Below, piece by piece: positions 1,903 to 61,600 of a DNA stretch of 64,000 bases (its first letter is position 1; every line of letters starts with the position of its first letter). The notes below the pieces were generated by a model that did not search any database, had not been told where the DNA came from, and saw only the letters and a program-made list of their open reading frames with translations. Both the position numbers and the translations under genes were made by a program. The DNA is taken from assembly GCA_964016885.1 (NCBI GenBank), contig OZ024753.1:37386001-37450000 (forward strand). The letters are read 5' to 3'. The DNA comes from Eledone cirrhosa. Lineage: Eukaryota.

Positions 1903-2011
1903 ATTTATTAAAATAACAGATTAAAGTTTAAGCAAAGAATCACTGCTTTCACCCTTAACAGGATCTTCTGAAACGGGATCTTTGGATTTTAGTCTTCAAA
2001 TTTATTATTAT

Positions 2012-8285: not shown

Positions 8286-8340
8286 ACTGCCTGAAGAGGT
8301 CACAGCCAAAGATGGCTGTCACTGAAATATATATAGCAGT
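8286..8340 (+). ncRNA. Type I hammerhead ribozyme (family A)
   Basis: actgc-CTGAAGA-ggtcacagcca(aaga)tggctgtcact-GAAA-tatat-ATA-gcagt. Stem I is actgc/gcagt, stem II is long, stem III is palindromic, and predicted cleavage is after 8335. Confidence 0.88.
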
Positions 8341-8382
8341 AATAAACAAAGCTAAATTTTAATCATTTGACTTTTATTTAAC

Positions 8383-16522: not shown

Positions 16523-16585
16523 ATTTCATTATACATATTTCAGGGATACCACATTAAATTATGGTATGCCTTCATCAGACAAAAT
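16523..16585 (-). ncRNA. Type I hammerhead ribozyme (family F)
   Basis: Reverse complement attttgt-CTGATGA-aggcataccata...tgtggtatccct-GAAA-tatgt-ATA-atgaaat. Confidence 0.75.
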
Positions 16586-18702: not shown

Positions 18703-18958
18703 AGGTCGGGCCCTACTGCGCATGCGCGAAGGTTGGATCCCACTGCGCATGCGTGAAGGTTCGACAGCACTGCGCATGCGCTAAGGTTGGACCGTAGTGC
18801 GCATGCGCGACGGTTGGACCATACTGCGCATGCACGAAGGTTCGATCCCACTGCGCATGCATGAAGGTTGGACAGCACTGCGCATTTGATAAGGTTGGAC
18901 TGTACTGCGCATGCGCGAAGGTCGGACCGTACAGCGCATGCGCGTAGGTTGAACCCCA
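18703..18958. repeat. 27-bp GC-rich minisatellite, 9 units, with TGCGCATGCG core
   Basis: actgcgcatgcg (or a close variant) recurs at 18715, 18742, 18769 ... 18931. Confidence 0.95.
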
Positions 18959-28806: not shown

Positions 28807-29435
28807 ATTAGTACACGAATGCAAGGTGTGTATATAAGATTGCGTATTCCTTCTTTTTCCCTCCCACTGTTCCGTTCGTCTGCTTTATAAAGTCCATAGG
28901 ATCTTTACAGCTGCGGTAGACAAACAACATTTGCATTGTACATATATTTCCCTTAACGCCAACTTAATAGAAGCCGGGCTTAAAATAATAATAATAATAA
29001 TAAATAAATAGATAGATAAATAAATAATAAAAAGTAAAAAAAAAATACAAAAAAATATACAATAATAAAAATTAAAAGTAAAAAAATAAAAGGAATTATT
29101 ATTATTATTGTTATTATTATTATTATTATTATTATTAGTGTTGTTGTTGGAAAAAATCTTTTTCTCCGAAAGTATATCGTGTTTAGCGTTCATAACAAGG
29201 CAGAAACAATAACAACATCTTTTAGGGTGGGGTGGGGGTGGGGTAGATGGAGTTCTTATTTTATTGGCTTACAGGTTTTTTTCTTTCTTTCTTTCTTGAA
29301 CTCCCGAGTGAAAAACTTGTGATAACAAAATAGTTAACTTCGATAGGATTTGAACTCAAAATGTAAAGGGCCGTAATTCTATGCCGCAAAGCTTGGTGTC
29401 CGACGTTCTACCGATTCTGCCAATCCATCAACCTT

Positions 29436-29795
29436 AAAGCCAGTAAAATAATACAAGACTAAATCTATTGACGGCGATGCTCCAGCATGACTACTAAAAC
29501 CAATCAAAGAATACAAGACGAAATCCCTTGACGGTTTTTCTCCAGCATGACTACTGTCCAAGGACTACAACCAGTCAAGGAATACAAGACTAAATTACTT
29601 GACGGTGTTGCTCCAGTATGACTGCTGTCCAAGGACTAAAACTAGTCATGGAATCCAAGATTAAATCCTTTGACGATGGTGCTCCAGCATGAAAACTGTC
29701 CAAGAACTAAAACCAGTCAAGGAATGCAAGACTAAATCCCTTGACAGTGTTGCTCCAGCATGACTGCTGTCCAGTGTCTGAAACCAGTAAAAGAA
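29436..29795 (+). repeat. Five tandem 60-72-bp units derived from a SINE-like 3' tail
   Basis: gacggtg.tgctccagcatgact.ctgtcc recurs 5 times; the array ends ctgaaaccagtaaaaga. Confidence 0.85.
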
Positions 29796-30198
29796 TGATA
29801 AAATAAAAAATATATACGAACATACAAAACATTTTTCATGCTAGGCAGCAATTAATTATCACTTCTAAGAGAATTTGTCAAACTTTCTAGAGTCCAACAT
29901 CCTACAAACGAGAAGAGGCATGGGTATACTTTCAACAAGGAGTGATAAGTATTAGCGATAAGGGTTCTAATACCCAATAGACAAGGTAAGATATGATAAG
30001 TAGAAGCGATAAGAGTTCCAATACCCCAATACCCAATAGACAAATTTCTTCTTCGTCGTCGTCCTCACCAAAAGTATCTTCCCAATTTCTTTATCATCAA
30101 ATTATATTATAATCTTTTTTGCTCCACCTCTACTTAAGTATAGCTTATCTATTTACAGACACAGCTATATATATATATATACAAGAATATAAATACAC

Positions 30199-33506: not shown

Positions 33507-33737
33507 GTATGTTTTGCGTGGGTATTATGAATACTGGTATGTATATGATGGTTTAATTAAGAGTTGGCCTTTCGTTGACACCCCGGGCAGGGGTCATTAT
33601 CACTGAGGGTCCTAACACAAACAAAAGACATAATTAAACGAGCTAACGAGATAATGTCACACAAGCATCTGTAGGAAGAGGAAAATTACATGTTTGTATT
33701 TATCTACTCCCGTTCACAATTAATCAACGTCGAGAAA

Positions 33738-33794
33738 TGGGCCTGTATAAATTCCACTACCTCCTCTATTTCTATACCAACCTATGTATACCTT

Positions 33795-33828
<34 letters not shown>

Positions 33829-33857
33829 GGTATACATAGGCTGGTAGAGAAATAGAG

Positions 33858-33893
<36 letters not shown>

Positions 33894-33950
33894 AAGGTAT
33901 ACATAGGTTGGTAAAGAAATAGAGGAGGTAGTGGAATTTATACAGGCCCA
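33738..33950. repeat. About 60-bp inverted repeat with internal (TA)n tracts and a partial third copy
   Basis: tgggcctgtataaattccactacc...ccttcca vs tggaagg...atttatacaggccca; partial copy at 33825-33860. Confidence 0.9.
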
Positions 33951-34379
33951 TATATATATATATATATATACAAATATAGATACATACATACATACACACA
34001 CGTACATATACGTAAGTATATACTTATATACGTACGTACGTATGTACGTATGTAAGTACGTAAGTACATATTACGTACGTATGTAAGTACGTAAGTACAT
34101 ATTTACATATATACATACATACACGCACACAATCATAGATACATGGAAGCAAAGATACATACATTCACACATACAAACACCGATATATATACACACACAC
34201 ACACACACGTATATATATATATATATACATATAGACAGCCAGATACACACATCTACACACACACACACACACACACTTGTACACAGATGCAAATACATAT
34301 ATGTGTATGTGTGTGTGTGACAGCTCCTACCTCTGCAGGTTTAGCTGGCCTCCTCCAAGGAATATCTAGGGTAATTTAA

Positions 34380-34651: not shown

Positions 34652-35097
34652 GACCATGAGGTAATATATACCATGTGGCAATATATACCATGTGGTAACA
34701 TATACTATGTGGTAACATATACCATGTGGTAACATATACCATGTGGTAACATAGCCCATGTGGTAACATATACCATGAGGTAACATGTACCATGTGGTAA
34801 CATATGCCATGTGGTAACATGTACCATGTGGTAACATGTACCATGAGGTAACATATACCATGTGGTAACATGTACCATGAGGTAACATATACTATGTGGT
34901 AACATATACCATGAGGTAACATGTACCATGTGGTAACACATACCATGTGGTAACATGTACCATGAGGTAACATGTACCATGTGTTAACATATACCATGTG
35001 GTAACATATACCATGAGGTAACATGTACCATGTGGTAACATATACCATGTGGTAACATATACCATGTGGTAACATATACCATGTGGTAACATATACC
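34652..35097. repeat. 17-bp minisatellite (ACCATGTGGTAACATAT)n, about 26 units
   Basis: Direct reading. Confidence 0.95.
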
Positions 35098-35880: not shown

Positions 35881-36795
35881 ATGAAAATAAAAATTATATT
35901 AAATATAAAATAAAATAAAATAAAAATATAAATATAAATATAAAACTAAATAAAATAAATTAAATTATATAAAATAAAATTAAAAAAATATACAAAATTA
36001 AAATAAGATAAAACTAAACCAAATATTGTAAAACAAAAAATAACTAATACGTTGAGTGGTTAGGTGTTGGTGTTGGTGTTGGTATTGGTGTTGATGTTAT
36101 GTTTGTTAGTAGTAGTGTAGTGTAGAACCTACTGTTACATGTTAATTAGTCACAACTTGACAGCTTCTAACGTTTACACAAAGCGATGATCAAAGGATAA
36201 GCTATGAAATAGTGCTGTCAGATAACTCACAACAAAACAACTGGTGAGATGCGAGAGTGATAATATCTATTTTTGTGGTAGTTGGTCCCTTCGTGAACAT
36301 CAGAGACCAAACAAAAATAAACCTTTAAAAAACACATTAAAATACCCCCACAAAGACCGCCAAGGGCTTAAAACACATAAATTGACCTAAAAAGACCCCA
36401 AAATGACATTGTTGGATGTGATAGGTGATTAGTTCAATTGCCAATGGAACGGAAATCATAAACTATTTTATGTTGCTCGTTGTAGTTGTTTTCGACAGAC
36501 CCATCAACAAAGTTTGAACTAAGGATTGATTCTTGTGAACTTAAATTGGTATAATGATTTACTCCTGTATATATATATATATATATATAAACACACATAA
36601 CTCTAACCCTAGTTCTAACTCTTCCCTAACACTGACCCAAATCCTAAACTTAACAATAACCCTAACCTAATACTAACCCAAACCCTAACACTTACCCTAG
36701 TGAAAAATGGAACGATATATGTGCGTGTGTGTGTGTTTGTGTGTGTGTAAATCAATATATATATATATTTTAGTCTTCAAATTTATTATTATTAC

Positions 36796-37523: not shown

Positions 37524-37572
37524 ATATATATATAATCATATACTCATACATACATATATATATATATATATG

Positions 37573-37641
37573 AGTTTCAGAAGATCCCGTTAAGGGTGAA
37601 AGCACCGATTCTTTGCTTAAACTTTAATCTGTTATTTTAAT
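37573..37641 (+). ncRNA. Family C variant hammerhead (CAGAAGA core) at 37573-37623
   Basis: agttt-CAGAAGA-tccc(gttaa)gggt-GAAA-gca...tgc-TT-aaact. Confidence 0.65.
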
Positions 37642-38820: not shown

Positions 38821-40244
38821 ATTATTATTATTATTGTTGTTGTTTTATGTGTGAATCTTCCAGAGTCTTTTCACGTAATCTATCTGAACGTCTGTCAACC
38901 TATATTTTTGTGACATATACCAATGGTCTCTAACTTTGGTTCATATGAACCTAAAGGGTTCACTAGAATATTTTGGGTCTCTGTGAAAAGATAGGAATTC
39001 CTACAGGGTTTGACAGCACATACTGGATTCGTACTTTGACCATTCCATTAAGATATTTCTAATGAAAGACTGTGACTAGGATTTTGATATTTGTTTGATT
39101 TTGAAAGAATCAAAAATTTCGAAGGATTTAGTGATATAAACTAGCTTTCAAATTATTAAGCTGATGTTTCGAACATAACTTAAGTTTTAACATAAATTTA
39201 TGATGGAAGGTTTTTGGATAAATATAGAAGTGAATTGTTTCAGTTGTGCTTGGTTGTAATATATAAACATGTATCATAACAGGTATGATTTGTATGCAAC
39301 AAATATAGTTTACAGTGGGTGTATATATAAACATTGCTTTTATATAATACAGTTGTGTTTGGTTGAAGCATGTACATATTTATATGTGAGTATTATAACC
39401 TGTTTCGTTTGTAGGTAAGATATATAATTTACAGGGATATAGTTATGCATATGTATTACTATTTGCAATCGAGTATGACTTTGTAGTATATATCATACTT
39501 TCGTAAAGTGACTCATACAGTCACAAGTATACACAACACCTTCTCGACGCTCCATCCCTTGATCTTGCGGAAAAAACACTGAACTGATACATTCTATACC
39601 ATCCCCGAAAGGATTGAAAGCAAAGTAGACCTTGGCGAAATTTACACTCAGAAAGCAGAGACCCAGAACAAAGGACCAACGCTCCAACTACTCTGCTAAA
39701 TCAACCGCCTTTGCATATATATTACTGGGTATATGTTAAACATATTGTTTTGGTTTGTATAGTACAGTTGTACTTGACTGTAGTTTATATGCCATATACT
39801 ACAACCCTGGTGGTATCTCATCTTACACCATATGTGTGTCAGTATTATATCGAATAGAAGAGGTTTGAGGATAAACACTAAATGTTATATATTCATTTAC
39901 TGTAGTTCGTGAACGCTTACATAAACTAACATAAGGATGCTTGGGTTTATAGGGAATAACTCTGCAGCGTGAACACACATAGACACACGGACACACACAC
40001 GTACATTCACTCATACGTCTACTCATTATATATATATAATGGTGGTGAAGTTGCAGAATCGTTAGTGTATCGAATAACACCACATTGCAGTATTTCGTTA
40101 AGACCCTTTCAAATCCAGCTGACCTCAAGTTTGCCTTTCAATATTTCCAAGGTTGATATAATCGACTTACTCTACCCCAAAAATGTCTGGCCTTGTACCT
40201 ATTTTAGAATATATATATATATATATACAGTAATAATGATAAAC

Positions 40245-40437
40245 GTGAAGACTAAAATCAACTGCGTTGACAGTTTCAGAAGATCCCGTTAAGGGTGAAA
40301 GCAGCGATTCTTTGCTTAAACTTTAATCTGTTATTTTAATAAATATTTACTTTATGGCTTTATATATTTTGATATATATATTATCCTTATCGAGCTCTCT
40401 TCGGATTTTAGTCTTCATATTTTTTATTATTACTATA
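40245..40437 (+). mobile_element. Longest family C element with HHR at 40272-40322
   Basis: Same CAGAAGA fold. The 5' tgaagactaaaatc is the inverted copy of the 3' gattttagtcttca. Ends in (TA)n. Confidence 0.8.
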
Positions 40438-46305: not shown

Positions 46306-46307
<2 letters not shown>

Positions 46308-46376
46308 TTATTAAAATAACAGATTAAAGTTTAAGCAAAGAATCGCTGCTTTCACCCCTAACGGGATCTTCTGAAA

Positions 46377-46378
<2 letters not shown>
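46306..46378 (-). mobile_element. Family C mini-element with CAGAAGA HHR (46328-46378)
   Basis: Reverse complement of 40272-40345. Confidence 0.75.
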
Positions 46379-57516: not shown

Positions 57517-57706
57517 ATATAGATGAGATTCTACAGGACTAGAACTGTTTCATTCTTTAGAAATCATCAGGGGATTCCTGATGATTTCTAAAGAATGAAA
57601 CAGTTCTAGTCCTGTAGAATCTCATCTATATTAAAACTTTTATACTCTGCAATGTATTGAGTACCTTACTTACTGTGGTTACCTCCGATTCAACCCGGAA
57701 TAACGT
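57517..57706 (+). mobile_element. Family E fold-back mini-element
   Basis: Perfect palindrome 57517-57631 with about 55-bp arms and a 5-nt loop, plus a tail ending at a TA-rich tract. Confidence 0.88.
57573..57621 (+). ncRNA. Type I hammerhead ribozyme (family E)
   Basis: gattc-CTGATGA-tttc(taaa)gaat-GAAA-cag(ttctagtc)ct-GTA-gaatc, with all three stems present. Confidence 0.82.
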
Positions 57707-61485: not shown

Positions 61486-61536
<51 letters not shown>

Positions 61537-61541
<5 letters not shown>

Positions 61542-61600
61542 TAAAATAACAGATTAAAGTTTAAGCAAAGAATCTCTGCTTTCACCCTTAACGGGATCTT
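61537..61600 (-). mobile_element. Family C mini-element truncated inside the HHR core
   Basis: Reverse complement aagatcccgttaagggtgaaagcagagattctttgcttaaact. Confidence 0.8.

Follow-up and report, generated by a model that had tools for sequence, protein, structure and literature searches.

Hammerhead-like motifs in the window

Within the window, as we call the whole 64,000-nucleotide stretch of Eledone cirrhosa DNA analysed here, a stem-checked descriptor combined with inspection located a type I hammerhead fold with an A at core position 4 (A4) at 40272..40322 (+). In this copy stem I pairs 40272-76 with 40318-22; the core CAGAAGA occupies 40277-83; stem II (40285-87/40293-95) encloses loop II (40288-92) and is flanked by U10.1 at 40284 and U11.1 at 40296; the GAA follows at 40297-99; and stem III (40300-03/40313-16) precedes U17 at 40317, the predicted cut falling at 40317/40318. 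Against the hammerhead's C3 U4 G5 A6 N7 G8 A9 the core matches at six positions and departs at position 4; the GAAA strand (G12 A13 A14), the A15.1-U16.1 pair, and H17 (in the triplet CUU) all match the type I form, and 10.1-11.1 is an unpaired U-U. The tail of the host element—a pLTR, equivalent in tandems to the 5' UTR of the downstream unit—runs from 40318 to 40433 (+), beginning with the 3' strand of a distal stem I and giving way to (TA)n target after its long-tail end. Upstream lie an inverted, 5'-truncated partner consisting of the end of the long tail (40230..40259, -), the inverted-repeat structure that such partners create being typical of Penelope-like insertions (PMC8557442), and the point at which the copy joins a remnant of sequence from farther upstream in the element (40260..40271, +). 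Because the U-rich bulge and the 5' strand of the distal stem are deleted, this copy is capable of only the minimal fold.

Three further copies carry the same core. In the one at 37572..37641 (+; core at 37578), which sits in (TA)n, the first element base is the A of stem I, preceded by an extra G; that at 46307..46378 (-; core at 46373), whose loop II ends in G, likewise starts at the A of stem I, its preceding G being ambiguous because a GA microsatellite adjoins it. The copy at 1903..1974 (-; core at 1970) has lost the first A of stem I, which stem is left with 4 bp, has CCT/GGG as stem II, and is joined to an inverted tail fragment (~1975-2016). A fifth copy, at about 61524..61600 (-), is truncated inside the core and starts at A6, and a fragment at 36767..36794 (+) consists of the tail of the same element only. 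The type I three-way junction can be paired in all the intact copies, and the window copies are without the U-rich bulge and the 9-bp distal stem; they are short, non-coding, truncated, and inert insertions. The sequence-only reading had thus been right in assigning the core CAGAAGA, a U10.1-U11.1 mismatch closing stem II, and a CUU triplet to all four copies; the stems that it described hold overall, with A15.1-U16.1 to be added to the GCA/TGC of stem III, except in the copy that it placed at 1925-1974, which deviates through its 4-bp stem I and its CCT/GGG.

With position 4 left free, the stem-checked type I descriptor returned nine motifs in the 64-kb window, the four A4 copies among them, against a mean of 0.13 motifs on 30 shuffles, so that the window motifs are not products of chance. 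The contention that standard searches would miss the motif proved correct for Rfam: a scan of 40240-40350 gave five unrelated weak matches at E<=10, the hammerhead family being absent, and that family was also absent among the best 150 of the 501 matches from the whole window.

Other hammerheads occur nearby. A canonical CUGAUGA type I family is represented at 57571-57622 (+), by an inverted partner at 57570 (-) forming a head-to-head pair, and by a relative at 1015 (-); this family, too, has U10.1-U11.1, and its 4-bp stem III bears a long loop. On opposite strands, 1.5 kb apart, lie two canonical minimal hammerheads that are nearly identical and have a long stem II and a palindromic TATATA stem III (8286-8344, +; 6744, -). 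Another canonical minimal hammerhead, at 16578 (-), recurs at a second locus (L282), where it follows the remnant of a Penelope-like endonuclease by ~1.6 kb. The window also contains a long inverted repeat (33737-33951), inside which a segment is directly duplicated around (TA)n and which scored below threshold against plant miRNA models, and minisatellites at 29435-29796 (period 71), 34653-35097 (period 17), and 18715-18955 (period 27).

The host element and the distribution of A4

In this 3.0-Gb, AT-rich genome the longer copies of the motif continue upstream, on their own strand, as a frame resembling an endonuclease. A protein search of the genome returned at least 150 scored matches, several with open frames of 707-726 residues, and ten of these matches were fetched for the description of the element. 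It has a single 709-aa ORF from an ATG, comprising a reverse transcriptase (RT) followed by a C-terminal GIY-YIG endonuclease, with YRDD at 346 and Y..YIG at 585; further motifs are RWR at 37 (R for the K of RWK), DKT at 115, CxCX5C at 564, CxxC at 662, and CxH at 690, and GxKF/Y is absent from the ORF. Since Pfam gave no significant match for the ORF, the assignment was made by motif: DKT, RWK, a CxCX5C linker, CxxC, CxH, and the lack of GxKF/Y define the Hydra clade of Penelope-like elements (PMC8557442), and the host element is accordingly Penelope-like with Hydra-clade protein motifs. A homolog search gave 151 matches, mostly unnamed, the best of them at 57% over part.

On the sense strand, the ORF stop is followed after 928 nt by stem I of the motif; in tandem units the motif precedes the next start codon by 203 nt. 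Insertion in (TA)n, the pLTR, and the frequent inverted truncated partner and tail are Hydra-clade features found here, the insertions ending approximately 25 nt (short tail) or 113 nt (long tail) beyond the predicted cut site. The canonical 3'-end hammerhead expected of the clade, in which such hammerheads are stated to be universal (PMC8557442), is replaced by the A4 core. We rejected a non-LTR retrozyme, which would consist of non-coding tandem units with a hammerhead in each, the motifs being dispersed 3' ends of a coding element. Three diverged ~130-nt repeats were noticed upstream of the hammerhead in one 3' UTR of the element (L094:5560-5860).

The element is present in ~20,000 copies, and A4 was found in 19,909 of the 20,117 genomic matches to a 31-base pattern, the other 208 having T, G, or C, so that natural U4, G4, and C4 point variants exist within the family. 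Among 30 copies picked by protein alone, all 13 with a readable core had A4 (17 were unreadable), as had 32/32 copies of a sister subfamily with a different loop II. Older subfamilies, retrieved with an older-tail anchor only (664 matches), had A4 in 36 of the 37 copies that could be read by eye through the core into stem I among the 100 matches listed. Position 4 carried no other letter in contigs retrieved by shared words from four runs labelled as other organisms, of which three were shallow and none was independent. A4 is an old, family-wide state, the change from U4 to A having presumably preceded the split of the subfamilies. That the core is a fixed, non-canonical one, as opposed to the decay of a single copy, is accordingly upheld by a frequency of 99.0% among the 20,117 matches and by the older subfamilies, the copies agreeing with each other because they descend from master elements.

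Candidates for other arrangements did not survive inspection. A canonical-core subfamily was suggested by 958 relaxed CTGA matches, of which 30 were examined and resolved into 24 fold-back junctions, in which the CTG is supplied by the inverted partner, four other junctions, and two point variants; with ~900 such fold-back CUGAAGA cases, a CUGANGA search would be misled. At a series of loci (L104-L133) fold-backs at core position 4-5 rebuild CUGAAGA from two A4 copies, without stem I. A diverged U4 copy (L281) was rejected as a family of its own when five fetched from its 41 other matches turned out to be of the main family. Nor were other A4 families detected: 9,814 matches to a loose pattern stood against 10,700 to its control, and those looked at proved to be minority variants within canonical families, coincidences on the opposite strand, or sequences without structure. 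At four loci, distant Penelope-like families of this genome have canonical cores downstream of the endonuclease, and U10.1-U11.1 also occurs in canonical-core families of this genome.

As a separate observation, a tandem array of ~428-nt units elsewhere (L274-L275; G000:C1:53355500-53371000) has a type I hammerhead in each unit, with a U-U base and a palindromic stem III, and is retrozyme-like; A4 occurs in six of the 25 units listed, the others having U4, so that U4A has also spread within this unrelated array.

Folding, conservation, and copy ends

In full copies stem I continues beyond a 7-nt U-rich pyrimidine bulge into a distal helix of 9 bp. The sequence immediately past proximal stem I supplies the 3' strand of this helix, whose pairs have predicted probabilities of 0.72-1.0; those of the proximal stem I pairs are 0.05-0.08. 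Loop II has a 5' purine and a 3' A in the family and in its older-subfamily variants, which purine...A motif occurs in 22 of 27 natural hammerheads, where it serves loop-loop contact (PMC2632901). The U-rich bulge and the R...A loop II are thus candidate partners for a loop I-loop II contact, in full copies only. Stem III, of 4 bp with a 9-nt non-palindromic loop, is of the monomer type.

By predicted energy the hammerhead fold is not the most stable one, the minimum being lower by 2.8-4.0 kcal/mol (window copy, -4.8 vs -8.8 kcal/mol; extended form, -12.3 vs -15.1 kcal/mol), and the window copies are predicted to fold no better than their shuffles (z-scores of 0.54, 0.04, -0.49, and -0.31). 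A4 lets the core pair with the GAAA strand (UUUCA with UGAAA): the predicted probability of the off pair C3-G12 is 0.40 in the extended form and 0.72 in the 51-nt form (0.02 and 0.06 for a natural copy with U4) and falls to 0.0 in a 100-nt context. As to activity, a type III scan found all single and double mutants of CUGA to have low activity, the C-G swap excepted, and no second change that rescued changes at U4 (PMC9901934); a viroid U4C variant is slow in vitro yet infectious (PMC3088659); and metazoan hammerheads of Penelope-like elements (PLEs) are slow even with a canonical core (PMC4209133, PMC6765202).

Whether the fold is under selection depends on the level at which substitutions are compared. 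The sequence-only reading had placed substitutions mostly in loops, which is so for the five window copies (four loop changes and one G-U wobble) and fails in 100 consecutive tail-anchored genomic copies out of 34,946, in which the stems had 48 substitutions in 2441 positions and loops II+III 18 in 1208 (Fisher p=0.36). This even spread is what inert copies would be expected to show, and the argument from loop bias is therefore removed. Between the young family and 13 older copies, none of the 46 stem and core columns differed, as against 21 of the 64 loop and tail columns (p=2.6e-6), a contrast inflated because the older copies were retrieved with patterns holding core and stem letters; older copies retrieved by the tail anchor, with less retrieval bias, and read by eye agree with stem and core conservation. 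Of 35 of these copies, 21 had A at N7, 13 had U, and one had G, the other positions of its core strand departing in one to five old copies each; one or two events in the lineage history might account for the N7 difference. In the distal stem a G-U pair has become A-U in five old copies among the matches listed, which change is one-sided, and no stem showed a compensatory double change, so that the conservation could be a sequence constraint from a promoter or from protein binding. The support for constraint comes, then, from differences between subfamilies and not from those among copies, and the between-subfamily pattern fits a hammerhead.

The ends of copies bear on the transcript. Among 100 tail-anchored copies the start fell at the A of AGUUU in nine, no more than 14 nt away on either side in 28, and at the cut site in none, while 54 of the 100 sampled continued for at least 91 nt upstream through an intact extended motif. 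At the cut site 795 matches had a preceding non-T, and 11 of 30 examined were junctions or deletions, mostly with microhomology; at the A of stem I, 3,867 matches had a non-T ahead of AGTTT, and 25 of 30 examined were junctions. By extrapolation, junctions genome-wide would number ~290 at the cut site vs ~3,200 at the A of stem I. A G precedes AGTTT in 58 of the first 100 among those 3,867 matches and in 19 of the 25 junction copies, nothing upstream of this extra G being shared between copies; presumably it is a copied cap or a non-templated base. The sequence at the putative start site is TTAGTTT, or TCAGTTT in older subfamilies, both of which are initiator-like. The RNA 5' end is likely to be a capped start at the A of AGUUU. 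Since the ends pile up there and not at the cut site, the templates of transposition were mostly uncleaved RNA, as in the anole element; the 54 copies running through the intact extended motif imply that many templates with the full fold went uncleaved. As a cause of the peak, a type III hammerhead cutting at this A was rejected on inspection of the sequence, there being no room for a stem I and no consistent stem III. In D. virilis, Penelope carries an internal promoter without a TATA box in the corresponding region (PMC2377424), and in an anole PLE hammerhead mutants had no effect on insertion in vitro, cleavage being protein-dependent (PMC11167929).

Readings of the A4 core and known systems

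The explanation that we put forward, whose chances of being right we regard as evenly balanced, is that of an attenuated, slow hammerhead of a ~20,000-copy Penelope-like element, whose fold is still maintained. Transcription would start at the A of AGUUU, and because that A belongs to stem I, the hammerhead at the transcript's 5' end would be without the distal stem and bulge, would rarely cut, and would leave the cap in place. A bulge able to dock on the G...A loop II would exist in only a read-through 3' copy or a tandem copy. Because reverse transcription would start 25 or 113 nt beyond the cut site, its template would have to be uncleaved RNA, which requirement would make a slow core of little cost, or even a benefit, to the element. 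What cleavage is left, in which the protein of the element may assist as happens in the anole, would serve to trim transcripts that read through.

The genomic record lends itself to other constructions. That U4A ended catalysis long ago, the sequence having since been kept as a transcription start and as a protein-binding RNA for reverse transcription, is possible, if somewhat doubtful; A4 might in that event even help to lock the predicted off fold, UUUCA paired with UGAAA. The copy ends lack a genomic signature of cleavage, the conserved block starts at the putative start site, compensatory changes are missing, the off pair is far more probable with A4 than with U4 in the 51-nt and extended forms, and Naiad elements proliferate without canonical hammerheads (PMC8557442). 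Yet the subfamily changes fall in loops, bulge, tail, and N7, which are the positions free in a hammerhead; the GAAA strand, stem III, and CUU are spared 25-50 nt into the transcript; and the off pair vanishes in the 100-nt context. The opposite construction, an efficient ribozyme in which extended stem I, bulge, and longer stem III rescue A4, so that the full 3' copy cuts usefully and the truncated 5' copy does not, we hold to be quite improbable. The monomer-type stem III, the predicted distal stem, and the conserved G...A loop II would suit it, and tertiary contacts have been proposed to offset core variants (PMC3088659); but more than half of the sampled copies read through an intact extended motif, second changes did not rescue U4 changes in the type III scan (PMC9901934), and three departures from the optimum (A4, U-U, and CUU) accumulate.

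A further reading is a natural, working U4A hammerhead whose activity is set by its position in the transcript, in which the capped-start copy, having no distal stem or bulge, is off and the read-through copy with the full scaffold cuts; this we consider unlikely. Very improbable indeed is the retention of A4 as part of a 3' splice site, the use of which would remove half of the core. The bulge does form a pyrimidine tract ending in AG, A4 creates a second TTTCAG acceptor, and an intron of the D. virilis Penelope extends as far as the 5' end of helix I (PMC4209133; intron in PMC2377424); against this, in 30 loci and 100 copies the junctions have no upstream exon in common, the sequence beyond the single G being target repeat or inverted partner, although retained introns could mask a shared exon.

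The family bears on the purpose that hammerheads serve in Penelope-like elements. Very successful, it has passed through several subfamily splits with a core change that looks crippling and with the rest of the fold retained; the natural U4, G4, and C4 variants would allow a comparison of whether slow cutting is enough or whether the fold alone matters. Were cutting real, searches based on CUGANGA would leave whole families of eukaryotic hammerheads out of their counts. The concentration of copy ends at the base that opens stem I moreover offers a genomic handle on the transcript start. Should the position-dependent hammerhead prove true, a position held to be invariant would be changeable in one of this genome's most successful retroelements, and a transcript start inside a ribozyme would be able to switch it.

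No report of a natural U4A hammerhead was found in the text of the papers that the search covered, and the negative holds for those texts only. A4 and the CUU site are what is new in the family, which the long loop III also sets apart; the U-U is not new, since 14 of 25 Hydra families and active natural hammerheads (PMC3088659) have it. By our own count of File S2 in PMC8557442, the 25 published Hydra families have CUGA in 25/25, U10.1-U11.1 in 14/25, and U17 in 10/25, always as GUU. The hammerheads of that clade (Craig et al., 2021; PMC8557442) resemble those of the A4 family in being of type I near the 3' end, in the common U-U, in U17, and in the ORF motifs, and the elements resemble ours in their (TA)n targets, inverted 5'-truncated partners, and tails. 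They differ in having CUGA where we find CAGA, GUU at U17 sites where we find CUU (G15.2-C16.2), and a loop III of 1-3 nt in place of 9 nt, and the motif listed for Hydra-1_oBim differs in sequence from the A4 family.

The minimal PLE hammerheads (Cervera and De la Peña, 2014; PMC4209133) also reside in pLTRs, with many solo truncated copies and opposite-strand pairs, and a low activity is expected of both; theirs, however, have a compensated U3-A8 pair and a minimal or palindromic stem III that works as a dimer, whereas the change here is uncompensated, at position 4, and accompanied by a monomer-sized stem III. Perreault et al. (2011; PMC3088659) present a position 4 change (the viroid U4C) and U10.1-U11.1, each natural and with some activity; U4A goes unnamed in the running text of that paper, and the search described there by default rejected core mutants in repeats. 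The PAc hammerhead of the anole Poseidon (PMC11167929) differs through a canonical minimal core, another clade, and a protein-assisted cleavage that has been shown, the A4 family being known from sequence; it is like that family in its two reverse-transcription starts downstream of the hammerhead, its short and long tails, and its uncleaved template.
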